In this document: in pieces, positions 2,611-30,779 of the stretch
How the letters are laid out: the number at the start of each line of letters is the position of its first letter
How positions within the stretch are numbered: position 1 is the first letter of the stretch
From: Bdellovibrionota bacterium
Lineage (GTDB): Bacteria > Bdellovibrionota_C > UBA2361 > JBGSMV01
NCBI GenBank assembly: GCA_041739995.1
Contig: JBGSMV010000029.1
Coordinates: 32,001-96,000 of the forward strand
Direction of reading: 5' to 3'
DNA length: 64,000 bases
Translations under genes and position numbers: made by a program
The notes under the pieces: generated by a model
Told to the model about the DNA's origin: nothing
Database searches by the model: none
The model's input: the letters and a program-made list of their open reading frames with translations, nothing else

Positions 2611-2967
2611 TCAGTAGCCCCCGGCTGCCTTTACTTTGAACCCTCTACCTTCAAGTTCCTTCAACAGCAGATCTTTATGATCGCCTTGAATTTCAATTGT
2701 GTATTCTTTGCTCGTTCCCCCGGTTCCGCAGCGAGCCTTTAGAGATTTTGCAAGCGCCTTTAATTCATCCGGGGGCAGGAGAAATCCACTGAGCACTGTG
2801 ACTATCTTGCCGTTTCTGCCTTTCGACTCGCGCTGCACTCTGATTGTGCCGTCACCAGATGGTGCAGGCATCGCGTTCTTACACACGCAGGACTTCTTTG
2901 GCTTCCCACATTCAGGGCACATCCGACCTTGGTCGGTCGAGTAAACGAGTTTTTCCGAGTCGGTCAT
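2611..2967 (-). CDS. yciH: Translation initiation factor SUI1/YciH
   Basis: LVYSTD..CP.C, KGR.GK.VT, LK.RCGTGGT, IEIQGDH motifs. Confidence 0.92.
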   Translation of the reverse strand: MTDSEKLVYSTDQGRMCPECGKPKKSCVCKNAMPAPSGDGTIRVQRESKGRNGKIVTVLSGFLLPPDELKALAKSLKARCGTGGTSKEYTIEIQGDHKDLLLKELEGRGFKVKAAGGY

Positions 2968-3033
2968 GAAGAACTCGTTGCAGGCAGTGTTTATTCTATC
3001 TTGGCCGCGTCGCCCATCAGAGAGCGAGCGTTC

Positions 3034-3666
3034 TTAGGCATTGCCTTTGAGATATTTCTCAAGTCCATCGATGTCGAGCTTTTCCGCAAGTGCGCGCAAA
3101 GTTGATGCATCTTTGTTGTTCTGATCTTCGAGCTTCAGCACAGAGCCAGCATCAAGAAATATGGTCAGGTCTGCGCTGGAAGATCCTTCCATCTTATTCA
3201 GCATTGCGGTTCTGCCATTGATGCGAAGCGTGTCCTGTCCCGCCTGCTGACCAAACATAGCGGCCATCTTACCGAGGGCTGCTAGATTTCCGAGACCAGC
3301 TCCGCCAGATCCTGATTGTCCTGTCAGTGACACGGTGACTGAGCTTCCCGCATTGGAATAGGTACGCTCGATGTTAGTAAAGCCCATGGCGCCACTCATT
3401 TCTATCTTGCCGCCCTTGTAGTCGCCGAGTTGCTCGGGGAAGAAGGTCTGAAGCCTTTGGCTATTGAGCTTCTCTAGTTCCTTTCGTGCCCAGCCAAGTT
3501 CTTCGATGGCTTTCGAGTAGTTTTTCTCGGCGACGAATCCGTTCACCCTGCTAAAAATCGCGTCTAATTCCTCCGCCAGTGACGAAGTTGGCAAGGTCAG
3601 TGCCGCGGCAAGCACAGTAAATGCACAGGTAGAATAAAAATGACTGCGGAAGGAGTAAGTTGTCAT
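3034..3666 (-). CDS. Hypothetical secreted protein
   Basis: Long ORF with signal-peptide-like N-terminus (…SSLA-EE); start uncertain (3666 or 3681). Confidence 0.7.
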   Translation of the reverse strand: MTTYSFRSHFYSTCAFTVLAAALTLPTSSLAEELDAIFSRVNGFVAEKNYSKAIEELGWARKELEKLNSQRLQTFFPEQLGDYKGGKIEMSGAMGFTNIERTYSNAGSSVTVSLTGQSGSGGAGLGNLAALGKMAAMFGQQAGQDTLRINGRTAMLNKMEGSSSADLTIFLDAGSVLKLEDQNNKDASTLRALAEKLDIDGLEKYLKGNA

Positions 3667-7385: not shown

Positions 7386-8978
7386 ATGCGGATAGAGTGG
7401 GCGGCTGCTCTGATTCTTTTGGCGGGGGCCTACTTGTTTGCGCAAGACGCGCATGCGCTACCGCAGGAGCAGGAGAGTGCGCGACCGCCAGTGATCGCCT
7501 CCACCGAAAGTTTCATGGGTAGTGCGACCGAGGTATTTCCTAGAGTTTTCGAAAAGATCGAGGTGAGGACTCTCCCCAATGGCTTGAGCGTTGCGCTCTA
7601 CCCCCGTGGAAATGCTCCGGTGTTTGCTGGTGTGGTTGCCGTTCGAGTGGGGGGGAGTGATGAGCATGTGGGGGAGACCGGCATCTCACACATGTTTGAG
7701 CACATGGCCTTTAAAGGCACACCAGAAATAGGGACCAAGGACTATCAAAAGGAGCGTGTGCTGCTCGATGAACTCGAAGTGCTTGCTGCTCAAGCTGCCA
7801 GCGAGGGTGTAGAGGTCCACGATTTAGGCGAGGAGTCTCTCAAGCTCTGGAATGAAATTCACGAAGCGCTCAAGCGCCTTTGGATTACTGATCAGTTTAC
7901 GCGCGAGTTTGAGTCGCGCGGAGCCGAGGGGCTAAATGCCACCACTGACAGTGAGATGACCAAGTATTTTGTGAATCTGCCGCGCACTGAGCTTGAGTTC
8001 TGGCTCAAAATGGAGTCAGAGCGGATTTTGCGCCCCGTGATGCGCCAGTTCTACCAGGAGCGTGATGTCGTTATGGAAGAGCGGCGAATGCGCTACGAAG
8101 ATGATCCTGAGGGCAAGCTGTATGAACTGCTTCGCTCAACAGCGTTTCTTGCGCACCCTTATAAAAATCCCGTCATTGGATATGCGTTCGATATCCGTGG
8201 GTTGACTGCTCGGATGTTGGAAAGCTTCCATCGGCGATTCTATGTCCCTGGCAATATCGCCGTTGCTATTGTGGGGGACGTCCGACCTAGTGAGGACTGG
8301 CCGCTTATCGAAAAGTACTTTGGGCGCATACCTGCAAAGCCTCTCCCCGCCAGGCCCCACGCAGTCGAACCAGTGCAGCAGGGCGAGCGGCGCATTGTGC
8401 TGGAAGCCGACGCATCACCAAGTTTCTATGTCGCTTATCGAAAGGTGCAGTATCCCCATCCCGATGATGCTCCGATTTCGGTAATGCTCGAAATGCTTGC
8501 GGGGAGTATCACGTCTCCACTTCAAAGAACTCTAGTGCAGCGTTTGCGCCTTGCAGCTTCGGTAAGTCATGCCGAGGGGCCGGGTGTTGCGTATCCAAAC
8601 TTGATGATGTTTGCGGTGAGACCACGTGCGCCGCACACAAATGTTGAGGTGCTTGAAGCCTTTGATCGAGTGCTTCAAGATTTCAAGAATTCAGGGGTTA
8701 CTCAAAATCGTTTGGACATTGCCAAGCGCTCAATCGCTACGTCTTACCTGTCGGAACTTGCCTCAAACACCTCATTGGGAAAAAATTTCGCCACCTCGAT
8801 GCTTCAGTTCGGGTCCTGGAAAGCGCCCTTCGATTGGTATGAGAAAGCAATGGCGGTTACCTCTGCTGATGTGCAGAGGGTGGCCGATCAGTATTTGATT
8901 CACACCGCGCGGAGTATTGCCATGCTTGAGCGTCCAAAGGCCGGCACCCAAACTTCTATTAACGCGGAGCAGCAATGA
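7386..8978 (+). CDS. M16 family zinc peptidase, catalytic subunit
   Basis: HMFEH (HxxEH) motif, L.NG, NATT, ERDVVMEERR; signal peptide from ATG 7386. Confidence 0.92.
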   Translation: MRIEWAAALILLAGAYLFAQDAHALPQEQESARPPVIASTESFMGSATEVFPRVFEKIEVRTLPNGLSVALYPRGNAPVFAGVVAVRVGGSDEHVGETGISHMFEHMAFKGTPEIGTKDYQKERVLLDELEVLAAQAASEGVEVHDLGEESLKLWNEIHEALKRLWITDQFTREFESRGAEGLNATTDSEMTKYFVNLPRTELEFWLKMESERILRPVMRQFYQERDVVMEERRMRYEDDPEGKLYELLRSTAFLAHPYKNPVIGYAFDIRGLTARMLESFHRRFYVPGNIAVAIVGDVRPSEDWPLIEKYFGRIPAKPLPARPHAVEPVQQGERRIVLEADASPSFYVAYRKVQYPHPDDAPISVMLEMLAGSITSPLQRTLVQRLRLAASVSHAEGPGVAYPNLMMFAVRPRAPHTNVEVLEAFDRVLQDFKNSGVTQNRLDIAKRSIATSYLSELASNTSLGKNFATSMLQFGSWKAPFDWYEKAMAVTSADVQRVADQYLIHTARSIAMLERPKAGTQTSINAEQQ

Positions 8979-14589: not shown

Positions 14590-15581
14590 GCGGAAGGGGA
14601 CAAAAGTTGAGGGTTTGAAAGAATCGAATGCATCACTCGCTCCACCGGAATTTGCTCGGTGCCAAAGTCAGTGACGGGGTAGCGTTCAAGGATTTGTTGC
14701 ATAGTGCTCCTCAGCGCGTTTTCAGGGATGCGGAGTTCAACGTGGGTGCGTTCAGGGTCCCAATCTGGCTCAAACGGCACGAAGAAAGTGTCTTCAACTG
14801 AGATAGCTGAGGCGAAGGAGACAGAAAGAAATTTTTCGGAACCGAGAAGTCTTTGAAATTTTGAGAGTTCACCATCGAAGCGTTTCTCTCCTCCGAGAAT
14901 AAGCACCACTCGGTCGCATAGCGCTTCGACATCTGCCATATAGTGGGAAGTGAGTATGATGGTGGTGCCTCGCTCTTTGTGGAAGTTGAGCAGAAACTGC
15001 CTAATTGAAACCTGGGCCACCACGTCGAGGCCAATGGTAGGTTCATCGAGAAATACTACTTTGGGATCATGGAGCAGTGAAGCCATGAGCTCCACTTTCA
15101 TGCGCTCACCCAGAGATAGCTTGCGCACGTGAGTTCTCAGTACGTGATTAACGCCAAGAAGCGTCCCAAGTTCATCCACGCGTTGGTTGAAATTCTGGCG
15201 AGAGATCTCGTAATAGGCACGTAAGAGCTCCAGCGAATCGAGGGCGGGGATGTCCCACCACAGCTGAGACTTTTGCCCCATGACGAGAGCAATCCGTCGG
15301 CGGAATTCCTTAGCACGCGCGAAGGGGTCGCACCCAAGTACTTGCAGGCGTCCATCGCTTGGCATGATAAGGCCGCTCAGCATCTTCATTAGCGTGGTTT
15401 TGCCGGCGCCATTTGGACCAAGAAGACCGAGGAGCTCTCCTTCACGAACAGAAAATGAAAAATCTCGCACGGCAGATATTTCGTTATACTCGCGTGAAGC
15501 AAAGCTCTTGAGAGAGCCAAGGATTCCAGGATCCTTTTTGTATATCTTGAATCGTTTAGTGAGAGCTTCGCAGTGAATCAT
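14586..15581 (-). CDS. ABC transporter ATP-binding protein
   Basis: GPNGAGKTT Walker A, LSLGE signature, FLDEPT Walker B; start taken as MIHCEAL at 15581. Confidence 0.93.
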   Translation of the reverse strand: MIHCEALTKRFKIYKKDPGILGSLKSFASREYNEISAVRDFSFSVREGELLGLLGPNGAGKTTLMKMLSGLIMPSDGRLQVLGCDPFARAKEFRRRIALVMGQKSQLWWDIPALDSLELLRAYYEISRQNFNQRVDELGTLLGVNHVLRTHVRKLSLGERMKVELMASLLHDPKVVFLDEPTIGLDVVAQVSIRQFLLNFHKERGTTIILTSHYMADVEALCDRVVLILGGEKRFDGELSKFQRLLGSEKFLSVSFASAISVEDTFFVPFEPDWDPERTHVELRIPENALRSTMQQILERYPVTDFGTEQIPVERVMHSILSNPQLLSPSA

Positions 15582-15763
15582 AGGGCGTTGAAACGTGTGG
15601 TTATTACGTCGCAGTCTACTTAAATCATTATTTATCGACAGGGCTACTCTTCGTGGAAATCGAGAGGCTCGATATGGACTACTCAGGCTTGGTCTGGCGC
15701 GACCTCGAGCTCGCCTTACTTCGATAATTCTCAAGTATTTGGGATTTCAAGTTTTAGCCTTCT

Positions 15764-15849
15764 GGCGCTACAATCCCCTCTCAAAGCCACTTGAGAGGGA
15801 GGATGCCAAAGCCAGGCGCTCCTATGGAGCGCTTCCTCTTGTCAGCGCC
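15764..15849 (+). ncRNA. Candidate structured RNA upstream of the RT gene
   Basis: Outer stem ggcgctacaa/ttgtcagcgcc (one bulge) enclosing hairpins ccctctcaa/ttgagaggg and gcgctcc/ggagcgc; expression unproven. Confidence 0.4.
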
Positions 15850-15866
15850 TTGCTTCGACTTTTCTT

Positions 15867-17306
15867 GTGAGTTTTTTGGCTCATGAGGGACGAAAGAGGG
15901 TCCGTCGAAGTCAGACGTCTAACCGGCCCGTTGATTGGGCAACATTTCTCTTTGGCATCCTTCGTCTTCGGTTTGCCTCGGCGCCCTGGACTAAAACTCA
16001 ATCGCGGATTTTTCAAGAGCTTTTTCATAGAGAGATGGAGATGTCCCCGAATTTTCCGGACTGGAGATTAGTTCGTCGCACCTTAGATCACGAATGGTCC
16101 GGTAAGCGACTTCGACTCCGGGAGCAAGATTCTGAGGGGATGACTCGGCAGGAATTTTTTCGCTTTCGACACCGCTTATTAGAAGGTTCGATACGGCAGA
16201 TTCGGACCAAGACGTTTGAGCCCGCAGTGGCAAGGCCTTTCACTATCTTCGTCGATAAGCCCCGAGTTGTTTTCCGTTTTCGATGGATTGACCACTTCTG
16301 GATGGACTACCTTGGATTCTTGCTTCGTGACAAGGCCGAGGAGATCTTGAGTGACGCGGTAGTGAGCTTTCGCACGGGGCGAGGAGTGCATACCGCCTTT
16401 GAGCGCCTTCGTCCGCTCTTTGCGGATCCATCACGCGGTGATTTATTTGTATTGCGACGAGATGTTCAGAACTATGGCCCCTCTATGGACCACCGTAGAA
16501 TGCAAAACATATTTCGCTCTATAGTTCCGTCAGCTCCCTTGCTTGAGCACTTGTTCTCGAAATTCTGCTCTTTCCAGTATTTAGAGGGAGAGCAGTGTGT
16601 GGTGAATGCTTCTGGTCTGCCAGCCGGGAGCCAGCTTCAAACCGCTTTTGACAATTTGTACCTGCATGAGTTGGATCACCAACTCGATAAAATGGACGAT
16701 GCGGTATACGTTAGATTTGGGGACGACATACTTTTCGCAACCACCTCACTGCAGAGAGCGCTTGACGCTAAGCGCCGCATCTCAGAATTCTTTTTAGCCG
16801 CACAGCTCGTGCCAAACGAAAAGAAGTGCCAAGATTTTGTCATCACGCGCACCGTAAAAAAATCTACCAGCCAGAAAGAATTCACGCCGGCACAAATATT
16901 CCCCTATCTCGGCATGCTGATCGATATGCGAGGAGATGCGTACCTTCCAAGACAGAAGATGAAAAAAATTACTACCTTTCTTAAGGCGCAGCTAAAAATG
17001 GCCTTGGGGCCCTCAGCGGGTAGCGGAGATAAGAATGTTGGTTTTGAAGCCATTCAGGTAGTCAAACATGTTCTCGGAGGCGGCCTGCTCAGTGGGGAAA
17101 ATCCATTGCTTCATTATCTGCCGTTGATGAGAAATGAAAAACAGCTTCGTGCGCTTGATCGATGGATCGCAACGGCAGTTATCTCAGCAGTGCATGGAGG
17201 AGGATTTAAGAAGTCATTCTTTCGGTCAACCTCGTTCTCTGAACTAAGAGAAATGGGGCTTCCGTCTCTTGTCCACATGCGCCGAGTCGGGAATCGTCAG
17301 CGATGA
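15867..17306 (+). CDS. Stand-alone group II-like reverse transcriptase (FGDD active site)
   Basis: RT motifs: SFRTGRG.H.A, RRDVQNY.PSMDH, GLPAGS…NLYLHELD, YVRFGDD, YLG; thumb-like tail ELREMGLPSL; true start may be ATG 16035/16041. Confidence 0.9.
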   Translation: MSFLAHEGRKRVRRSQTSNRPVDWATFLFGILRLRFASAPWTKTQSRIFQELFHREMEMSPNFPDWRLVRRTLDHEWSGKRLRLREQDSEGMTRQEFFRFRHRLLEGSIRQIRTKTFEPAVARPFTIFVDKPRVVFRFRWIDHFWMDYLGFLLRDKAEEILSDAVVSFRTGRGVHTAFERLRPLFADPSRGDLFVLRRDVQNYGPSMDHRRMQNIFRSIVPSAPLLEHLFSKFCSFQYLEGEQCVVNASGLPAGSQLQTAFDNLYLHELDHQLDKMDDAVYVRFGDDILFATTSLQRALDAKRRISEFFLAAQLVPNEKKCQDFVITRTVKKSTSQKEFTPAQIFPYLGMLIDMRGDAYLPRQKMKKITTFLKAQLKMALGPSAGSGDKNVGFEAIQVVKHVLGGGLLSGENPLLHYLPLMRNEKQLRALDRWIATAVISAVHGGGFKKSFFRSTSFSELREMGLPSLVHMRRVGNRQR

Positions 17307-19534
17307 GCCTTTTTCAACCGCGAAGTTCTCGATTCCAACGTTTTGATAGAGAAACCGCGGAAATTTTAAGCGATCCTCACCCCCGAGCACCTCTGCAAGT
17401 GCTTATTAGGTTGGTGTGTTCTCAGCGCAACTATATTTTTTGGCACGTGACGTTCTTGGCGCTGCACTTTGCTGAGCTATTGGTACTCGCACTCATTCAT
17501 CGCATTTACTTTCCCCCAGAATCGCTGCTGCTATTGAGGGTCTGCTCCACGGTTTCGCTTATCGCGGTTATTGCTTCCTGTAGTGCGAGACTATCACAGT
17601 CGTTTAGTGACAGTGATGCGGAGAGAGGGGGTGGCCCGGACGCATGGCGCGTGGCGCGACTCCTCTTTCAGAGCACATTGTTGTTAATGCTCGCCCTTGC
17701 AGTTTGCGTATACCTTTCGCGTGACGCTAATTTTGCAAGTCCGCCAATTTTCCGGGCCTTGGTATTTTCTATCTTCATCACACTGCCCTTTGATTGCATG
17801 CTTAACTTCATTTTTCTCAATCAGAGGGCATTCTCAAGGCTGATTCATCGCCGTCATCTGAGAACAATCACCCTACTTGGCGACCTAGTTTCTTTGTGGT
17901 GCGTGTATACTGACCAGCCAGTGTTGTGCCTACTGTCGCGCACGCTGCCTCGTCTCTGGGCGGCCCTAGCGGTTTGGAAAGATGTGACGGGGTTCACTGT
18001 ATCTCGCCTATTTGAAGCACGCCTATTTGCCGACGCATCGGAGCGAAAGTCGGCAGTTTATCTGATTCAAACCTCTGGCCCAGCGGTGGCGTGCGCCGGG
18101 CTGATGGAGGTGTCTCTATACTGGAGCCTCTGGTTGTTGAACCGTGGGGTGGAGGGGGCGGCGCTCTTGATATTCTGTAGTCACAAGATCGTGCATCTGG
18201 GGCATCTGGTGTCGTTGAGACTCGGGATGCGACAGAGCGCGATGTTTGATGCCGCTGATGTGAGAGTGGGTACGCAAATGGGATTAGCGTTTTTACGGCG
18301 CTGGGGACTCGTGATGCTCGCGAGCATCTTGGTGGCCATTCTCTTCAGTCCCATGTTGTTGCTGCAGAAGGAGGTGGTGTTGTGGAGTTCTCACCTAGGC
18401 GAGTCCTTCGGATGGTCTCTTGCGGTGGGGCTATCCGTGCTTGCACTGACGGGAGCGCGTATTTGCACGCACGGATTAGTCACCATGGCAGCTTTGAGGC
18501 TAAGGCGTTGGCGAGAGTGCCTTCCGGTCATCATATGGATGTTGTTTGTGGGTTCCGTCTTGAGTTGGCTCACGCGCAGCGTGCTCGTTCACGAGGAGAT
18601 GGAACAAACGCTGATCTCACTTTCAAGCGCTGAGGCTTTGCTCAACCTTGGATTCCTGTGGTGTGTGGCCTGGCTGCTCATGCGAGAGCTTCGCCTGTCA
18701 CACGCGGCTCTTAAGAGAGGTGCTTCGATTAGGTTCTTAGAGGAGTTTGAGCGCGACCTCACGAAACCTTCCGACTCCGTTTGTCTTGTGTATGTAAAGA
18801 CCAGCGGAAAACTACAGAAGCCACTACTGGAAGTCGTCACTCCAGCGGAAAAGGACGGCCTTAAGCCTTTTGCGTGCTTCTCCATTATCGGCAACCAGTC
18901 ACTAATGCTTCTTCGTGCGTCCCGACCTTTGGGTAAGGTAAGGATAAGGCAGTCACTTGCTCGCTGCCTCGCGGGTGGTATTGAAGAGTTGCGGATTTTG
19001 AAATCCGAAGTAGCCGACTACCACGAGTTATTCCCCTTTGGGGTAAGTTCTGAATCGGTCACACGCTGGCTGGTCGATCTTTTGCGTCAGGGCAAACCTG
19101 AGCCTACTCTGTCGGAGGAAGAACGTGAGCGCCTAGATTTCATTTGCGAGACCGCCTTTGGCACTTCGAGGGCTACAGAGGCGGCTATGGTGCCCGGATT
19201 TGTGGTCGCAAGTGCCGCTGAAAAATGGGACCTGTCACACATATCAGAGCGAGATTTACGCAAGCAAATCGTGCGATATGGCAAGCGCCTGATTGAACGT
19301 GATCTGGTATGGAATCCAATCCCGCTATGGAAAGGTGAATTTAGGGGATTTGTTCACCTCGTTCGTAATGGAGAGGTGGTAAGGATCCTTTGGTTTGACG
19401 CCAGCCTAAGAAGTCTCAAGCCGCACATCGAAAACGCGGCCCTCGTGAGAAGTTTCGTGGAGCTCTTCTCGGCGTTTGGAGCGGCAGAACGAATGCAGCA
19501 GAACCCGCCGGAACTATCTGAGGAGTTGAGATGA
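17303..19534 (+). CDS. Polytopic membrane protein (~12 TM) with soluble C-terminal domain
   Basis: About 12 hydrophobic segments in the first ~460 aa, then ~280 hydrophilic aa; ATGA overlaps with both neighbours. Confidence 0.8.
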   Translation: MSLFQPRSSRFQRFDRETAEILSDPHPRAPLQVLIRLVCSQRNYIFWHVTFLALHFAELLVLALIHRIYFPPESLLLLRVCSTVSLIAVIASCSARLSQSFSDSDAERGGGPDAWRVARLLFQSTLLLMLALAVCVYLSRDANFASPPIFRALVFSIFITLPFDCMLNFIFLNQRAFSRLIHRRHLRTITLLGDLVSLWCVYTDQPVLCLLSRTLPRLWAALAVWKDVTGFTVSRLFEARLFADASERKSAVYLIQTSGPAVACAGLMEVSLYWSLWLLNRGVEGAALLIFCSHKIVHLGHLVSLRLGMRQSAMFDAADVRVGTQMGLAFLRRWGLVMLASILVAILFSPMLLLQKEVVLWSSHLGESFGWSLAVGLSVLALTGARICTHGLVTMAALRLRRWRECLPVIIWMLFVGSVLSWLTRSVLVHEEMEQTLISLSSAEALLNLGFLWCVAWLLMRELRLSHAALKRGASIRFLEEFERDLTKPSDSVCLVYVKTSGKLQKPLLEVVTPAEKDGLKPFACFSIIGNQSLMLLRASRPLGKVRIRQSLARCLAGGIEELRILKSEVADYHELFPFGVSSESVTRWLVDLLRQGKPEPTLSEEERERLDFICETAFGTSRATEAAMVPGFVVASAAEKWDLSHISERDLRKQIVRYGKRLIERDLVWNPIPLWKGEFRGFVHLVRNGEVVRILWFDASLRSLKPHIENAALVRSFVELFSAFGAAERMQQNPPELSEELR

Positions 19535-21681
19535 AGAGTCCCCCAAGTTGGATAATCTTGAGGGTGATAGCTCGGTGCCAAACGGCGCTGAGTAGGATCT
19601 TCGTGCCATTTCTGCTCGCGCTTTTGTTGCTCATTACAAGTGCGCTCGTTTTTGAAGGGCCGCTTCGTCGCCAATTTCCCCATAGGGCAGCGCGAATGAG
19701 CTGGGAAATTGACGGCATGAGTATTGAGATTTTCCGCTCGCGGGAATCCCGTTATTTTCCAGAAATGCGGTACTCACCGATGCATATCACCGTTCCATTT
19801 TCTCAGACTCCGCGTGGATGTGAGTTCGTGTATGGGGCCGTGGTGTATAGATATCACCAGCAAAGCGATCGTCTGATCGAACAACCCAGGTATCTTACCA
19901 AGTTTCGATATAATCTCGAGCGTGGGCGCTGTGAGTCGAAAGATCTCTTCATTATTGATGGAGAGACTCCTTTCGACATGGATGTTCAACTTGTTGATGT
20001 CGAGCTTTCAGGCGAAGAAATAATCGAGATGCCTAGGCCTGAAGGATTACGGATTATAGCCTTGAGTCCAGAAGAAGTTCGGGTAGCTAAACAGGTTATT
20101 CCAGCGCAAGAACCTTTTCGACGACCACAATTCACCAAGCGAATTTCGAAATTTTCTGCCAATCTCGACGCAGGTGAGGCCGAGATGCTTGTGGCGCCTT
20201 ACGATCAGGTTAAGCCTCTGATCTTGTCGGAGATTCGGGCGCTGATCGAACGTTGCAAGAGCAGCGGGCAAAGCAACGCGCAGTGTTCTTCTGCCCCGGG
20301 TTCGTCCATCCGCGGCGCAATTGCCGAGATTCTTGATCCGGATATCTCAGATGCAATGGAGGACGCACGTGCTGCAGGCATAGACGTTGATGTGCTCACC
20401 AACTACCGCGCACAAGCAGAGACGTCGCAGCTTGTGACGCTCGATCACGGCAAACTACGTGGCGTCACCGCTAGGTTCGATGGGCCGAGCCCTTGGATGT
20501 GGCTGCGTTTGAACCCGCATTCATTAGTGCTCAAGCTGCCAATGCATACAAAGTTTATTATCATCGGCGACTCCTTCGTATTAAGCACGAATGCCAATTT
20601 CAACTTCATGTTCACCGAAAGTAGTCGCGAAGTAACGATGGTGTATCGAAGCCCGACAGTGGTGCAGATGTTTGACGACTTGCTCGCGCAGATCCGTACT
20701 TCAGTGTATCGCCCGCTTGATGTCGATCTTCGAGATAACTTTCTTCTGCTATTCAATGCGGATCGGCCAAGGGGCTACTCAGTGACGGATCAAAAGTCTT
20801 ACGTCCCGATTAATACTAATGAAGGTGTCAGATCGAGTGCGTACGGCATTTTGCTCGAGCTTCTCGCGCGGTCAACGGGTGAGGTTGTGCTCGCCATGTC
20901 CCCCATCTCTGACGCTTGTGATACCTATCGTCGTCGGCACTGTTTGTTCGACATTCTTTCGCGGCGTGCAGGTATTGGTATGTTCCGCCTATTCATGAAT
21001 GGCTACTTCTATTTTAGCGAGGAGGTGGGAGGCCTTGATGAGTGGCGCTATGCGGCGCGTCGGTATCAAGAAGAGTTTCAGAATCGGTTTCGTGCCGTCA
21101 GGAAGATTTTTTCTGAAACTAGTGAGGATGGTCTCTCGATTTTTATGCAAAAGGGCAATTCCTACAGCCTCCATCACGAGCGCTTAGGTCTCGTGGGGGA
21201 TGATTGGGTCCTGGCAGGGTCCGCGAACCTTGGCCAAAAGGGGACACTGAATGTGATGGAACTATTGAGAAGCCCTGTCCTCATGGAGAAGGTAAAGAGC
21301 GAGGTAGCGACGTTTGATGAGCCATACTTTGTTTCCCATGCCCATGAGTGGACTCCGGAGGAGAAAGAATATCGAAATTGTGAGTTCACCTTTGAGCGCG
21401 AGCTGCTTCATTGGAGAGAGTATAAACTTAAACGCTTTCAGCGTAGCGAGGTCATTTCAGAATTGAAACGTAAGTACGGAGTCGAAGCACCCGGGACATT
21501 ATTTCTGGTGTCTCCGGCCTTTGATCCGAGGCCGGATGATGGAGTTCGCTATTTCAAGGATGTGGGAGAAAAGGTCGTCGAACTAGAGGAAGTTTTTACA
21601 AGCCTTTCAAGTTATCTCTGCATCCAGGACAGTGCGGGGCAAAGCTATGTCGTCAATGTTCAAGCGTCTGCTGGAGACTAG
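19531..21681 (+). CDS. Phospholipase D-superfamily protein with two divergent HKD motifs and an N-terminal anchor
   Basis: MHTKFIIIGD…STNAN and HHERLGLVGD…GSAN motifs; hydrophobic IFVPFLLALLLLITSALVF. Confidence 0.75.
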   Translation: MKSPPSWIILRVIARCQTALSRIFVPFLLALLLLITSALVFEGPLRRQFPHRAARMSWEIDGMSIEIFRSRESRYFPEMRYSPMHITVPFSQTPRGCEFVYGAVVYRYHQQSDRLIEQPRYLTKFRYNLERGRCESKDLFIIDGETPFDMDVQLVDVELSGEEIIEMPRPEGLRIIALSPEEVRVAKQVIPAQEPFRRPQFTKRISKFSANLDAGEAEMLVAPYDQVKPLILSEIRALIERCKSSGQSNAQCSSAPGSSIRGAIAEILDPDISDAMEDARAAGIDVDVLTNYRAQAETSQLVTLDHGKLRGVTARFDGPSPWMWLRLNPHSLVLKLPMHTKFIIIGDSFVLSTNANFNFMFTESSREVTMVYRSPTVVQMFDDLLAQIRTSVYRPLDVDLRDNFLLLFNADRPRGYSVTDQKSYVPINTNEGVRSSAYGILLELLARSTGEVVLAMSPISDACDTYRRRHCLFDILSRRAGIGMFRLFMNGYFYFSEEVGGLDEWRYAARRYQEEFQNRFRAVRKIFSETSEDGLSIFMQKGNSYSLHHERLGLVGDDWVLAGSANLGQKGTLNVMELLRSPVLMEKVKSEVATFDEPYFVSHAHEWTPEEKEYRNCEFTFERELLHWREYKLKRFQRSEVISELKRKYGVEAPGTLFLVSPAFDPRPDDGVRYFKDVGEKVVELEEVFTSLSSYLCIQDSAGQSYVVNVQASAGD

Positions 21682-27728: not shown

Positions 27729-30700
27729 ATGATAGGTCCCTCAGAATCAGCGGCATCAGATGCCACGGATGGCTTGCTATCCTCCCAGGCTGCCGAATCC
27801 AAAGAGTTCTCTAAGTTCCCTGGGGAAGGTTCTCGGGTAACTGAAAGCGGCACTAGTGACGCATTGGACGCTCTTATAGCCCCTTCAAAGGGCGCGCTCG
27901 AAGCTCCGGCGTTACCTGGGAAAGTGCCTTTGGGGAAGGTCGCAGAGCACCTAGAGAAATTTATCAAAGAGGCACTTAAGGACTCTGACCATCAACCGCT
28001 GGGGGTGCTTGATGAATCCCTCAAGGAGCTTTCTAAGTTGCTCGGCTCAAGCGGAGAAGACGATGATATTCCCACAAAAGGTCTGAAAATTTCATATCGA
28101 CTGGGGCACCTATCTGAACTTAGTTCGGTCGACCGCCGGCGTTCAGTCAAAGCTCTGTGGGCCTGCGCGCTGAGTGGAAGTCGCCTGTCGCCGGAAATGC
28201 GAGCCGTGCTGTCCCGAATGCAGAATGTACTCGCACCTGACGAGAAAGAATCGCTGGCGAAGTGGCTCTATAACGTATCTAAGGGCGATGCTGAAGGAGA
28301 AAATGGAATCACTGCGGTGATTGGAGAAAGTGGACGTTTGCAAGCACGGAAGTTGTTGGAGATTGTATTGGAAGGGTGCAAAACGCTTACCGAATTACGA
28401 GCGGTAGTAGATGGAGTTGGAAAGCGAAATCTGATCGCGTTACGCGAACGTCCAATATCCGAGTTTGTGGCCGTTCGAGTTCTTGGATCTCGGATGCGCG
28501 AATGGCGCAAGTTCTCGATCACAGCTCCGATGCAAGCTCGTTCTATAAAGCGAGGAGGCTTTCTCAAAGAAAAAGCTCCGGCGCCAGTGGCGCAGCGCAG
28601 ACTCAAAAGTATTGCTGAAGAGCTCGATCTGAGAAGAAAAGCTCTTTCTGAGAACGGTCGCTTTGCGCGCTCTCAAGCCTACAAGAGCTACATGGCGATT
28701 CTAGACAAGAATGAACAGTACCTACGCAGTGAGCGTAGAAGGTGCAAAAGCACTAAAGACCGAGTTGCGCTAGCAAATTTACTTACGGCCACGATGGCGG
28801 TGGAGTTCAAGTATAATTTGAGACTTACTGTGGAGCGTGATGGAGCCGGCAAGCCTAAGTGTCGATGGACGGAAAGTTGGGTGCGCGACGTTGGGGCAGC
28901 TCTGGGCGGTCTTCCCGAGATGTTGATAATCGCTACACCGAAGCTCAGACAAGTGCGCCTAATCGAGGCATTCAAGGATGGTTCCTATGGGCAACGAAAG
29001 AGTAATGGTCTCGTAGAGCTTTCTTCCGACGCGGTGGGTGCGGAGTCACGCGATAAAATGGCGGGGCATGTGAGATTTGCGCGTTCCCTCATCACTCATG
29101 AAGTCGGTCACAGCATTTTTTATGGGAAGGCCGGCTGGGGGGGTGCGAAGTCAAAGGAGAATGTTGAAGAGCTCGGTCGTAAGAGCTCGCCGAAATTTGA
29201 TTTTCGAGGATTTCTTGAAATAGCAGGATGGAACGTGATCTCGCCGGACCGTTGGAAGCTCGATCAATCGCAAGAGTTGGTCACGGTGGATGGAGAACCT
29301 CAGCGCCTTATGAGACCTGTGCGCCTAAAGGGATCTAGTAGCGACGTGATTTTGTCTTATCAAGGTGAAGATCGCACTCTATATAGCTTTTCCAAACCTG
29401 AGGGGCTTCCGTCCAGTAGTTATGGTGCCGCGGATCCCTTTGAGGACCTTGCCGAAGGCTTTGTTGAATACCGCTATGCTCCGCATCGACTGATAAAAAT
29501 TGCGCCATGGAAATTTCTGTGGTTTGAAGGCGAATTGGGGCTCTACGAAGTCTCCTCAGGGAAAGACTCTAGTGTGCGAGAGGCTCTCTCAGTGAAACTT
29601 CCCGGTCTTTTCCCGCCCCGTCGGGATTTAGCGACGAAGCCGCTTGCCGAGCTTACCTTAGATCGTGTTTCCACTAGTGCCTCGGAGATCCAGTCTCTGG
29701 TTTTGCCCCGTCGAGATATCAAGGCTCTGCCAGTATCCGAAGCCCAGGTCGGGCATTTTTGCTGGAAGGTTTTTAGGGAGGGAGGCGAGATTGAGGCAAG
29801 ACTCACGTCGCCGATGGCTCCTCCTAGTTCGCGTGAAGGCAGCAGTGAAATCATAACGGTTCCAAACCTGCGCCTATCGGAAACCCAGACCATGACCCTG
29901 CTGTTGCTTGGTTTGCGCGGAGCCTCCCAGACTATCCCAGGAGATCCCATCCCCGAACATTCGAGAGTGTTGAACCTTTTGAATTGGGTAGAGGCGCGTA
30001 AAATTCCGTGGAGCTCCCCGTTAGCGGCGAACAAAGTTGAGCTCTCCGCCCATTTGCTAGAGATTATCGGAGATTCCGAGGGACGAGCGTTTTGGGATAG
30101 GCATCTTCGAAGCACTGAAGTGCTGCCGGGTATTATTTCTGTCCGTTGCGCGAATAGTGAGTTGCTTGCATCTGCCTTCTGTAGATTGCAAGAGCACTAT
30201 GAGGGGCCACATTTTCACGGAAAGGTATTCTCCTTAGACGAGTATAAGCAGTGGTATCGCAAGGAGGCCAAGGCCGGGGTCTTTTCCTACTATGAGGATT
30301 GGGGTGGTTTTAACGTACCCCGAGCAGCAGTACTGAGCTTTTTAGACGGGGAGTTCCCGAATCTTCGAGTAAGGGAAGAGAGTCTGTTGGCGAGGGCGAC
30401 GCAGAACAAAGATGCTTCTTACCTTATCGGTGTTCCGGAGGGTCAGGAGGAGCAGGAAACCTTCAATCACGAGCTAAGCCATGCGCTGTGGGCGACCAAT
30501 GAATCTTATCGCGAAGAAGCTGGTCGAATTGTTAAGGCTCTACCTTTGGAGAGTTTCCGTAGGTGGTTGATTGAGAGTGGATATTGCGATCAGGTGTTGG
30601 ATGACGAGTGCGCGGCCCACCTAGTGGATGAGGCGTCGCCGTTCTCGCACTTAACATCTGCTAGATGCGCTAATGTTTCGGCCAAAGATCGAAAGAGGGT

Positions 30701-30779
30701 GCGAGAAGGTCATCTGGAGATCGAGCAACTATTCTCGCGGTATTCTACGGGAGCCTGGGAGCGGCACGCTTCGATTTGA
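27729..30779 (+). CDS. Large hypothetical protein with two HExxH metallopeptidase-like domains
   Basis: THEVGH plus YG..DP.EDLAE.F; second FNHELSH in the C-terminal domain. Confidence 0.75.
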   Translation: MIGPSESAASDATDGLLSSQAAESKEFSKFPGEGSRVTESGTSDALDALIAPSKGALEAPALPGKVPLGKVAEHLEKFIKEALKDSDHQPLGVLDESLKELSKLLGSSGEDDDIPTKGLKISYRLGHLSELSSVDRRRSVKALWACALSGSRLSPEMRAVLSRMQNVLAPDEKESLAKWLYNVSKGDAEGENGITAVIGESGRLQARKLLEIVLEGCKTLTELRAVVDGVGKRNLIALRERPISEFVAVRVLGSRMREWRKFSITAPMQARSIKRGGFLKEKAPAPVAQRRLKSIAEELDLRRKALSENGRFARSQAYKSYMAILDKNEQYLRSERRRCKSTKDRVALANLLTATMAVEFKYNLRLTVERDGAGKPKCRWTESWVRDVGAALGGLPEMLIIATPKLRQVRLIEAFKDGSYGQRKSNGLVELSSDAVGAESRDKMAGHVRFARSLITHEVGHSIFYGKAGWGGAKSKENVEELGRKSSPKFDFRGFLEIAGWNVISPDRWKLDQSQELVTVDGEPQRLMRPVRLKGSSSDVILSYQGEDRTLYSFSKPEGLPSSSYGAADPFEDLAEGFVEYRYAPHRLIKIAPWKFLWFEGELGLYEVSSGKDSSVREALSVKLPGLFPPRRDLATKPLAELTLDRVSTSASEIQSLVLPRRDIKALPVSEAQVGHFCWKVFREGGEIEARLTSPMAPPSSREGSSEIITVPNLRLSETQTMTLLLLGLRGASQTIPGDPIPEHSRVLNLLNWVEARKIPWSSPLAANKVELSAHLLEIIGDSEGRAFWDRHLRSTEVLPGIISVRCANSELLASAFCRLQEHYEGPHFHGKVFSLDEYKQWYRKEAKAGVFSYYEDWGGFNVPRAAVLSFLDGEFPNLRVREESLLARATQNKDASYLIGVPEGQEEQETFNHELSHALWATNESYREEAGRIVKALPLESFRRWLIESGYCDQVLDDECAAHLVDEASPFSHLTSARCANVSAKDRKRVREGHLEIEQLFSRYSTGAWERHASI

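Follow-up and report, generated by a model that had tools for sequence, protein, structure and literature searches.

Retrons are encoded in the order non-coding RNA (ncRNA), reverse transcriptase (RT), effector, with inverted repeats that close the RNA and accessory effectors that vary. Among the Class 2 UG/Abi RTs, which include the defence-associated RTs DRT2, DRT9 and DRT10, upstream ncRNAs are described as serving as templates (PMC9226505, PMC12632851), and in all three systems the RT is described as binding and copying its upstream ncRNA (PMC12039810, PMC12483538, PMC12489045); citations here and below refer to excerpts of these articles. UG26, another Class 2 UG/Abi group, has 35 members and an inconclusive defence prediction (Mestre et al. 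2022, PMC9226505). Here we examine the region upstream of an RT gene in a Bdellovibrionota bacterium (assembly GCA_041739995.1). The sequence analysed, called the window throughout, is the 64,000-nt stretch at positions 32,001-96,000 of the forward strand of contig JBGSMV010000029.1, and coordinates given without a locus handle refer to it. An original prediction made from this sequence had drawn a three-way-junction RNA directly upstream of the RT, at 15764-15849, and had taken it for the template or primer RNA of the system. Our preferred reading, to which we give a probability of roughly 0.58, is that the leader of the RT gene is a structured ncRNA of ~165-220 nt, on the + strand, that acts as the RNA partner of the RT. 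The conserved part of the leader is thereby relocated, with its core just downstream of the junction first drawn.

Evidence for a conserved RNA came from the leaders of other loci in the branch of the RT family to which the window belongs. The same junction topology was found in the window, L115, L122, L124, L001 and L123: a stem (S1) is followed by a few unpaired bases, a first hairpin (A) and a second hairpin (B) whose 3' end lies directly against the returning S1 strand (S1'). The junction stems differ in sequence between loci, and the six hairpin B loops are GAAAGAGG in the window and UACAGGAG, GAGAAGAG, GAGAAGGG, GACAGUGG and GAGAGCAG in the others. Alignment of the six closing-helix domains with MAFFT and RNAalifold gave hairpin B, with its 4 bp and its 8-nt purine-rich loop, as the single consensus helix. 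MAFFT alignments are not structure-aware and were unusable for a leave-one-out covariance model; a descriptor of S1, hairpin A and hairpin B was scanned instead. This descriptor matched 13 times in 1,027,602 nt of loci and window together, and five of the 13 matches were the leader elements of L115, L122, L123, L124 and the window. It matched 61 times in the 7,624,802 nt of the window's own genome, the window's element included, and therefore only ~0.004 matches would be expected by chance in a 453-nt leader. A relaxed descriptor was too noisy to judge the motif in L130, L125, L126 and L119.

A candidate pseudoknot adds to this evidence. Each of the six loci carries 5-6 nt that complement the hairpin B loop, in a stretch near the 3' end of the hairpin preceding S1. 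With the complement restricted to a 14-nt region, from -2 to +12 nt of the 3' end of that hairpin (P2), the summed loop-linker complementarity was 33. When the letters of the loops were permuted, the sum averaged 22.8 and never exceeded 32, so that none of 5000 permutations reached 33, and of the 720 possible assignments of loops to regions a single one, the true one, reached this value. L001 and L123 differ in loop and linker alike yet keep the match. Tests on single loci are weak (63 to 1189 of 5000), and three loci share similar homopurine/homopyrimidine tracts.

The larger architecture is also shared. The RTs of L001 and L123 are only 49% identical, and their leaders have in common a 50-nt block of 84% identity and an 82-nt block of 71% identity; the joint fold of the two contains 47 pairs, nine of them compensatory. 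Closing helices of 9-12 bp, each tested against 200 shuffles per locus (see table), were found in L115, L001, L123, L124, L130 and L122, with the long helix ending shortly before the RT start. A hairpin directly follows the 5' strand of the closing helix (P1) in the window, L115, L124, L001, L123 and L130. A single strand containing CAA, just before the 3' strand of P1 (P1'), recurs in L001, L123, L122, L130 and the two-gene branch described below, which is a weak hint only. The order common to the window, L115, L124, L001 and L123 is closing helix, hairpin, loop-complement, S1, hairpin A, hairpin B, S1', an optional further hairpin, single strand, closing helix. Judged from these sequence comparisons, the predicted conserved core of the window consists of hairpin 2 (P2), the linker 15835-15840 and the junction 15852-15911, inside the helix 15800-15811/15950-15961.

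Covariation came from a second branch of the family, in which the RT is followed by a different partner gene (the two-gene branch, L002-L033). A 15-nt motif, AGAGAYYGCGGUCUU, lies upstream of the RT, on the RT strand, in 14 loci; it forms an invariant apical hairpin, and the helices P1-P3 around it covary. Six close leaders gave a consensus of 62 pairs, comprising a 26-bp closing helix and three hairpins, with 20 pairs compensatory. A covariance model, R1, found 12 further loci at E<0.01, all on the + strand and just upstream of the RT. In an alignment of 13 rows, 94.3% of cells were paired, against 63.2% after shuffling, and 42 of the 62 pairs change on both sides, which none of 500 shuffles reached; this alignment was fitted to R1, so these counts lean toward structure. 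When it was slid by 1-3 columns, pairing fell to 40-48%. The R1 RNAs share a core in which two hairpins and a single-stranded 3' segment accompany the closing helix, and an Rfam 15 search of seven relatives' loci gave no matches at E<=0.1. In L019, L021, L027 and L029 a sigma-70-like sequence, TTGACA-N17-GACAAT, stands directly before the closing helix, ~70-110 nt before the loop motif, which suggests that the RNA is the 5' end of the transcript. The covariation that the original prediction had looked to upstream of RT homologues is thus present in the two-gene branch; R1 itself has no significant match in the window, whether run with default filters or with filters off.

Structure upstream of the RT is a more general trait of the family. 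Across 41 loci, the 240 nt before the RT had a mean z-score of -1.71, against -0.24 for the 240 nt further upstream (Wilcoxon p 4e-6), in a comparison where related loci are not independent and which the window and L130 lie outside. A z-score below -2 was found before the RT at 16 of these loci and further upstream at two. Three observations on individual sequences are added here. L024 carries tandem repeats, with units containing CTTGGCGGC and GGTATCGGCGTCTCG, directly after the hairpin motif (L024:5350-5560), and its RT start lies ~480 nt from the motif, much farther than at other loci. L015 has an R1 match of 58.7 bits (E 1e-14) on the strand opposite the RT, near the contig end (L015:764-988, minus), which may be a truncated second system. 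AGAGAYYGCGGUCUU is absent from the window leader even when three mismatches are allowed; CUCAAUCGCGGAUUUUUC, at 16003-16020 between the core and the RT start, has the 7-mer AUCGCGG in common with the loop motif of the two-gene branch and can form a 4-bp triloop hairpin, a resemblance that is probably due to chance.

The leader of the window is bounded by an ABC-transporter ATPase reading frame on the minus strand, which begins at 15581 (Pfam ABC_tran), and by Met 16035 of the RT. Met 16035 is the first start codon of the RT frame past the structured region; an in-frame GTG at 15867 falls inside the structure. Position 1 of the RT family profile corresponds to 16041, where the copy of the protein in a public collection (421 aa) begins as well. 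The ABC and RT starts therefore enclose a noncoding gap of 453 nt, in agreement with the ~450 nt (15582-16034) first estimated. The whole leader folded with a z-score of -2.36, two of 100 shuffles being equally stable, and the 222-nt region 15764-15985 had a minimum free energy (MFE) of -97.7 kcal/mol and a z-score of -5.03, a stability that none of 200 shuffles equalled. The 14-bp long-range stem was reached in none of 200 dinucleotide shuffles of the leader, in which the longest stem averaged 8.5 bp. Pair probabilities were computed in four frames longer than the original junction (15582-16040, 15700-16040, 15750-16000 and 15764-15990), and were 0.955 for hairpin 1, 0.946 for hairpin 2, 0.85 for the long-range helix 15798-15811/15950-15963 (P1; 0.99 if the RNA starts at 15781) and 0.96 for the outer helix 15764-15769/15980-15985 (P0). 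Hairpin A, with four G-U pairs among 10 on the plus strand, is disrupted in the minus-strand fold, and the RT strand is therefore favoured.

The junction of the original prediction fared differently alone and in context. Its components were all present: the stem between GGCGCTACAA (15764-15773) and TTGTCAGCGCC (15839-15849), with 6+4 bp and one bulged C; the hairpins 15776-15799 (9 bp, 6-nt loop) and 15814-15834 (9 bp, 3-nt loop); and the complement CTTCGAC 15853/GTCGAAG 15904, which pairs with a probability of 0.99 in context. Folded alone, 15764-15849 took the form drawn, with an MFE of -41.9 kcal/mol against -26.7 +/- 3.4 for shuffles (z -4.51, 0 of 200 as stable). In all four longer frames, the pair probability of its closing stem was 0.0, and forcing that stem cost ~9 kcal/mol (-89.3 against -98.5 for the free fold). 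The stem uses 15839-15849 and its extension of hairpin 2 uses 15835-15838, and both compete with conserved features. That the junction is the conserved RNA is not supported: its 3' strand overlaps 15835-15840, the stretch complementary to the hairpin B loop in six loci, and no homologous junction was found at that position in relatives. The hairpins and the CUUCGAC/GUCGAAG stem are therefore robust and non-random, and the three-way junction is a local alternative rather than the favoured fold. What survives of the original prediction is a structured RNA directly 5' of the RT, given the covarying RNAs of relatives and the junction and pseudoknot shared with five of them; the assignment of that RNA to 15764-15849 does not. 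The conserved core is instead built from what had been noted as a further complement (15853/15904), together with hairpin 2.

The 5' limit of the RNA depends on the status of hairpin 1, for which no counterpart was recognised in relatives. A sequence TTCAAG-N17-TACAAT, with TACAAT at 15769-15774, was read by eye in the leader; a promoter and terminator scan returned no promoter-like sites and one minus-strand terminator-like site, within shuffle expectation. If transcription starts near 15781, hairpin 1 may lie outside the RNA. Hairpin 1 and 15764-15769 may be part of the RNA through P0, or may alternatively be promoter DNA.

Table. Features of the RT locus in the window, and the loop motif and closing helices of related loci (shuffle counts are shuffles reaching the helix length).
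Feature	Position	Strand	Description
Noncoding leader	15582-16034	+	453 nt, between divergent ABC-transporter operon and RT start codon
Three-way junction of the original prediction	15764-15849	+	86 nt; local alternative fold
Hairpin 1	15776-15799	+	9 bp, 6-nt loop; 5' of the conserved core; probability 0.955
P1, 5' strand	15800-15811	+	pairs with 15950-15961; 12 bp in MFE, extendable to 14 (15798-15811/15950-15963)
Hairpin 2 (P2)	15814-15834	+	9 bp, UAU loop, 2 nt after P1; probability 0.946
Candidate pseudoknot, 5' strand CCUCUU	15835-15840	+	complementary to AAGAGG 15894-15899 in the hairpin B loop
Conserved small three-way junction	15852-15911	+	S1, hairpin A and hairpin B; coordinates from MFE
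Enclosing stem S1	15852-15859/15904-15911	+	8 bp
Hairpin A	15864-15887	+	10 bp, 4 of them G-U
Hairpin B	15888-15903	+	4 bp; purine-rich 8-nt loop GAAAGAGG at 15892-15899
Hairpin 3	15926-15940	+	5 bp, 5-nt loop (MFE)
Single-stranded segment AACAUUUCU	15941-15949	+	between hairpin 3 and P1'
P1, 3' strand (P1')	15950-15961	+	from MFE, pair probabilities and shuffle test
Outer helix P0, 3' strand	15980-15985	+	6 bp with 15764-15769; alternative partner of the GGCGC strand of the original prediction; probability 0.96
Reverse transcriptase	16035-17306	+	423 aa from Met 16035; catalytic motif RFGDD; Pfam RVT_1 1e-08
Gene B	17303-19534	+	743 aa; N-terminal ~430 aa with six hydrophobic stretches, C-terminal part soluble
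Gene C	19531-21681	+	716-aa PLD-like (HKD) protein; Pfam PLDc_2 1.1e-12
Loci with AGAGAYYGCGGUCUU			L003, L004, L005, L009, L012, L016, L018, L019, L021, L023, L024, L027, L029, L031
L115 closing helix			12 bp; 2/200 shuffles
L123 closing helix			11 bp; 6/200 shuffles
L001 closing helix			10 bp; 20/200 shuffles
L124 closing helix			10 bp; 26/200 shuffles
L126 closing helix			11 bp; 19/200 shuffles
L122 closing helix			9 bp; 97/200 shuffles
L130 closing helix			9 bp; 71/200 shuffles
L125 closing helix			9 bp; 106/200 shuffles
L119 closing helix			8 bp; 158/200 shuffles

The alternative that survives best, which we regard as unlikely, is that the leader is a cis-acting element in the 5' untranslated region (UTR) of the mRNA for the RT and the two genes that follow it, B and C, serving as an attenuator, in the control of stability or translation, or in autoregulation by the RT. 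In this view the competing pairings of GGCGC 15764-15769 with GCGCC at 15845-15849 or at 15981-15985 would correspond to two switch states. Two mutually exclusive folds do exist (the junction first drawn, and P1 with P0), but the former is 9 kcal/mol worse and has an equilibrium probability of ~0. Directly after the closing helix, L001, L123 and L115 have a U-run and next the start codon of the RT, a terminator-like arrangement; no U-run follows P1' in the window. Because the element adjoins the operon without a break, a separate transcript is putative; against a regulatory leader of known type, an Rfam 15 search of 15000-17500 at E<=10 returned no riboswitch or other leader match, its sole match being an influenza pseudoknot model inside the RT gene (E 0.6). 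The junction and pseudoknot are moreover kept across RTs of 27-49% identity and are more elaborate than a simple attenuator. A regulatory role and a role as RT partner are not exclusive.

It is improbable that the leader has no dedicated RNA function, its structure being due to chance or to elements that act as DNA, for instance operators, divergent promoters or a terminator belonging to another transcript. In favour of this view, the gap has to accommodate a promoter in each direction, the fold of the minus strand is equally stable, the sequencing runs holding the locus are all of DNA, and the promoter and terminator scan gave nothing above shuffle expectation. Against this stand the z-score near -5 and the 14-bp helix, neither reached in 200 shuffles, the motif common to five relatives with differing upstream neighbours, and the loop-linker covariation. 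A repeat element, whether a repetitive extragenic palindrome (REP) or a miniature inverted-repeat transposable element (MITE), was rejected because the leader is single copy in its own genome. Four small open reading frames (ORFs) in the leader (91, 62, 68 and 56 aa) were rejected as genes; they are not conserved in relatives and have no paralogue in the genome.

A retron-like msr/msd is just as doubtful. In this reading P1 would correspond to the a1/a2 repeats, the 5' hairpins to msr, and the S1 domain to msd, copied into branched msDNA. The order of ncRNA, RT and effector genes, the long closing helix that brackets the RNA and the diversity of effectors (membrane, PLD-like) all fit. However, the scores of the RT with retron models fall far short (30.6 bits where the cut-off is 235; PADLOC 1e-7 to 1e-9 against 1e-20 to 1e-26 for its best models), no branching-G context was identified, and a closing helix of 12-14 bp is not diagnostic of retrons, because DRT9/DRT10-type RNAs have it too. 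The weakest alternative, that the 86-nt junction 15764-15849 is itself the template or primer RNA, perhaps formed co-transcriptionally before the downstream strands are made, can draw on its stability alone, on the closing stem and two hairpins that likewise make up the RNA core of the two-gene branch, and on the advantage of local helices in co-transcriptional folding, but is most improbable given a closing stem that vanishes in every longer context, the lack of anything comparable at that position in relatives, the consumption of 15835-15842 (the conserved loop-complement) by its 3' strand and hairpin 2 extension, the -10-like TACAAT inside its 5' strand, and the failure of R1 to align with it.

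Several observations weigh against our preferred reading of an RNA partner for the RT. The minus strand of the window folds as stably as the plus strand (z -5.67). The best + strand score of R1 in the window was 2.5 bits (E 0.12, filters off), below the 5.6 bits of a minus-strand match; the weak + strand match aligns the closing helix of the model to the 14-bp helix. In the window's own branch, the fixed-window z-scores of L001, L122 and L123 are too modest to be distinctive, the closing helix is individually significant only in the window, L115 and L123 and not in L122, L130, L125 or L119, and L119 is almost without a leader. MAFFT and RNAalifold recovered only four pairs across six leaders. 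The junction descriptor and the pseudoknot test (0 of 5000) were designed after the sequences had been seen, and their p-values are optimistic. The leaders compared belong to RTs no closer than 35% identity, and the helices of the window are without a column-by-column measure of covariation. All four sequencing runs that hold the locus are of DNA and come from a single metagenome study of hot springs and biofilms; across the leader their contigs do not differ from the window, and therefore supply no natural variants for covariation. Clear defence neighbours were found at only two of 20 loci (L007 and L013; 72 flanking proteins).

If the leader does provide an RNA partner, the RNA would extend from roughly 15781 or 15798 to 15963, or from 15764 to 15985 should P0 and hairpin 1 belong to it, and would be made either as the 5' end of the RT-B-C transcript or just before it. 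Its predicted anatomy is P1, P2, the S1/A/B junction, a pseudoknot that joins CCUCUU to the loop of hairpin B, then a third hairpin and, before P1', a short single strand. On the model of DRT2, DRT9, DRT10 and retrons, this RNA would be bound by the RT and copied in part into DNA, and the DNA product or the state of the ribonucleoprotein would control proteins B (membrane) and C (PLD-like), perhaps as a defence against phage. The function that the three DRT systems make most likely is that of a template ncRNA bound by the RT. A wider proposal is more speculative, and we hold it with less than even confidence: that the locus represents an undescribed RT-RNA system whose RT falls between the UG/Abi and group II intron-like lineages and is joined by a large polytopic membrane protein, a PLD-like phosphodiesterase and a distinct type of pseudoknotted ncRNA. 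Its widespread sister would then be the two-gene branch, with RT, membrane partner and R1-type RNA; DNA copied by the RT from part of the RNA would gate the effectors, and the whole would be a new defence or stress module with an RNA family that Rfam lacks.

The RT belongs to a large unnamed family that fits no named group. Its best PADLOC model was RT_UG26 (4.9e-26, 89.4 bits), which has no curated PADLOC cut-off and was covered at positions 68-257 of 398 only, followed by Drt9 (3.3e-20, 70 bits), covered at positions 76-320 of 488 only and thus short of full length, and RT_UG17 (1.7e-12). The retron RT models of PADLOC (RT_II-A, RT_III-A) gave 1e-7 to 1e-9, well below UG26 and Drt9. Named classes were rejected on NCBIfam scores far below their cut-offs: the retron RT clade (retron_St85_RT, 30.6 bits against 235), DRT2/UG2 (Drt2, 36.7 against 390), DRT3a (Drt3a, 48.9 against 200) and group II introns (TIGR04416 RT/maturase, 55.8 against 300). 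No group II intron RNA family was found by Rfam in 15000-17500 at E<=10, and gene B overlaps the RT stop codon and therefore leaves no room for intron domains V and VI. In the PDB, entry 9ioa, an RNA-dependent DNA polymerase, matched at 5.5e-4 only. A word-based protein search yielded just three relatives, of which two have 45% and one has 29% identity. When 1.84 billion representatives were searched with a profile, 13872 proteins matched at E<=0.001, 3619 of them reached E<=1e-10 and 408 clusters reached E<=1e-30; lengths of 410-480 aa predominated among the best-scoring matches.

Genes B and C each overlap their upstream neighbour by 4 nt, which indicates an RT-B-C operon. The six hydrophobic stretches of gene B lie within residues 44-429, and the protein had no match in Pfam, PADLOC, NCBIfam or the PDB; the AlphaFold2 model has a mean predicted local distance difference test score (pLDDT) of 39, and leads from a protein atlas were weak (0.76) and pointed to MurJ/MATE-type flippases. 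From its sequence, gene C is presumed to encode a phosphodiesterase or nuclease effector. By tblastn, gene C matched L122 (1e-97), L123 (9e-94) and L124 (1e-60), and gene B matched L122 downstream of the RT (8e-26). The third genes of L125 and L126 match PADLOC DrmC at ~6e-13. The three-gene branch, with the order RT-B-PLD, thus comprises the window, L122, L124, L125 and L126; L123 matches both B and C, and the contigs of L001 and L115 are too short to show a whole operon.

In the two-gene branch, the partner ORF directly after the RT was extracted from 26 loci, and all 26 are interrelated by BLASTP. None matched gene B or gene C by BLASTP. The profile comparison by hhalign aligned the N-terminal half of gene B with the ~670-aa two-gene-branch partner over 324 columns (probability 91.9%, E 6.9e-7), and on this basis the two architectures are taken as versions of one system. 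A scan of one genome per species yielded 33 loci with RTs of 21-34% identity. In the window's own small phylum (124 genomes), seven genomes, the window's included, have an RT at E<=1e-30, and the only loci contributed by searches at the level of order, class and phylum were L115, L130 and L127, the last being identical in record to L001. Searches for closer RT relatives gave only distant matches in metagenomes, none in viral contigs, and only group II intron RTs in plasmids. More than one system occurs in one genome and on one contig: a genome of the window's family (G003) carries paralogous RT systems on contigs C8 (L115) and C74 (L122), with RTs 38% identical, and L006 carries two tandem RT systems on one contig, each with an R1-type upstream RNA (2889-3035 and 8062-8219).

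The clearest defence-island context among the loci examined was L007:13-3825, a Verrucomicrobiia contig where a type I restriction enzyme and the cyclase-phospholipase pair of a cyclic-oligonucleotide-based antiphage signalling system (CBASS) adjoin the RT; the defence neighbour of L013 is IetA. In the window, the neighbouring genes are housekeeping genes, and there is no compositional island, the G+C content being flat (0.48-0.55) across 9-27 kb. Further along, a 1016-aa ORF at 27729-30779 (+) is without a Pfam family at E<=1e-4.

The locus offers an RT family of several hundred clusters with two types of upstream RNA absent from Rfam, one of them strongly covarying, and a three-gene version with membrane and PLD-like partners. 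Retrons, DRT2, DRT9 and DRT10 each revealed an unexpected mode of making DNA, and each became a tool or a model; the coordinates of the RNA core, closing helix and candidate pseudoknot allow experiments on the present system to be designed directly. In the literature excerpts available, no description was found of an RT accompanied by a ~700-aa membrane protein and by a PLD-like protein, or of these RNA motifs; the supplementary tables of RT-linked gene clusters in the UG/Abi survey (PMC9226505) may bear on this.

Among described systems, DRT9 (UG28) and DRT10 (UG17) share with the layout predicted for the window an ncRNA upstream in the same operon and a large central or closing stem bearing smaller stem-loops; in the cited excerpts, a short region of the DRT9 and DRT10 ncRNAs templates the RT (PMC12632851, PMC9226505). 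Drt9 is also among the best PADLOC matches of the window RT (3.3e-20), and DRT10 likewise needs a membrane partner, in its case a SLATT protein. The differences are that no U-rich or A-B-A' template was identified in the window, that the partners are a ~740-aa polytopic protein and a PLD-like protein rather than SLATT, and that no RNA similarity was found at the level of Rfam or of models, a comparison that included no DRT9 RNA model. DRT2 (UG2) has a pseudoknotted ncRNA immediately 5' of the RT (PMC12039810, PMC9226505), and its structure is described as group-specific, with little sequence conservation between subgroups (PMC9226505), as in the window's family. In contrast to the window, where the RT precedes two effector-like genes, DRT2 consists of one gene, and its effector is produced from the cDNA. 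UG26 provides the best PADLOC model, which some relatives, L007 among them, match over nearly its full length (L007: 4.1e-31, positions 26-391 of 398). However, the excerpted survey (PMC9226505) gives a Vsr-like endonuclease in nine of the 35 UG26 members and reports in that text neither an ncRNA nor a PLD or membrane partner.

Retrons parallel the layout predicted for the window in the ncRNA-RT-effector order, the closing inverted repeats and the varied effectors, but the window RT lies outside the retron clade by score. The nearest parallel within the family is the R1 RNA, which accompanies RTs of the same family (profile E 1e-40 to 1e-77), occupies the same position and strand, and has a closing P1, a hairpin directly after P1 and a CAA-containing single strand before P1', next to a partner remotely homologous to gene B. 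It differs in its apical AGAGAYYGCGGUCUU, in place of which the window has the S1/A/B junction. The window RNA thus resembles the ncRNAs of DRT2, DRT9, DRT10 and retrons in layout, and is probably a member of none of these groups.

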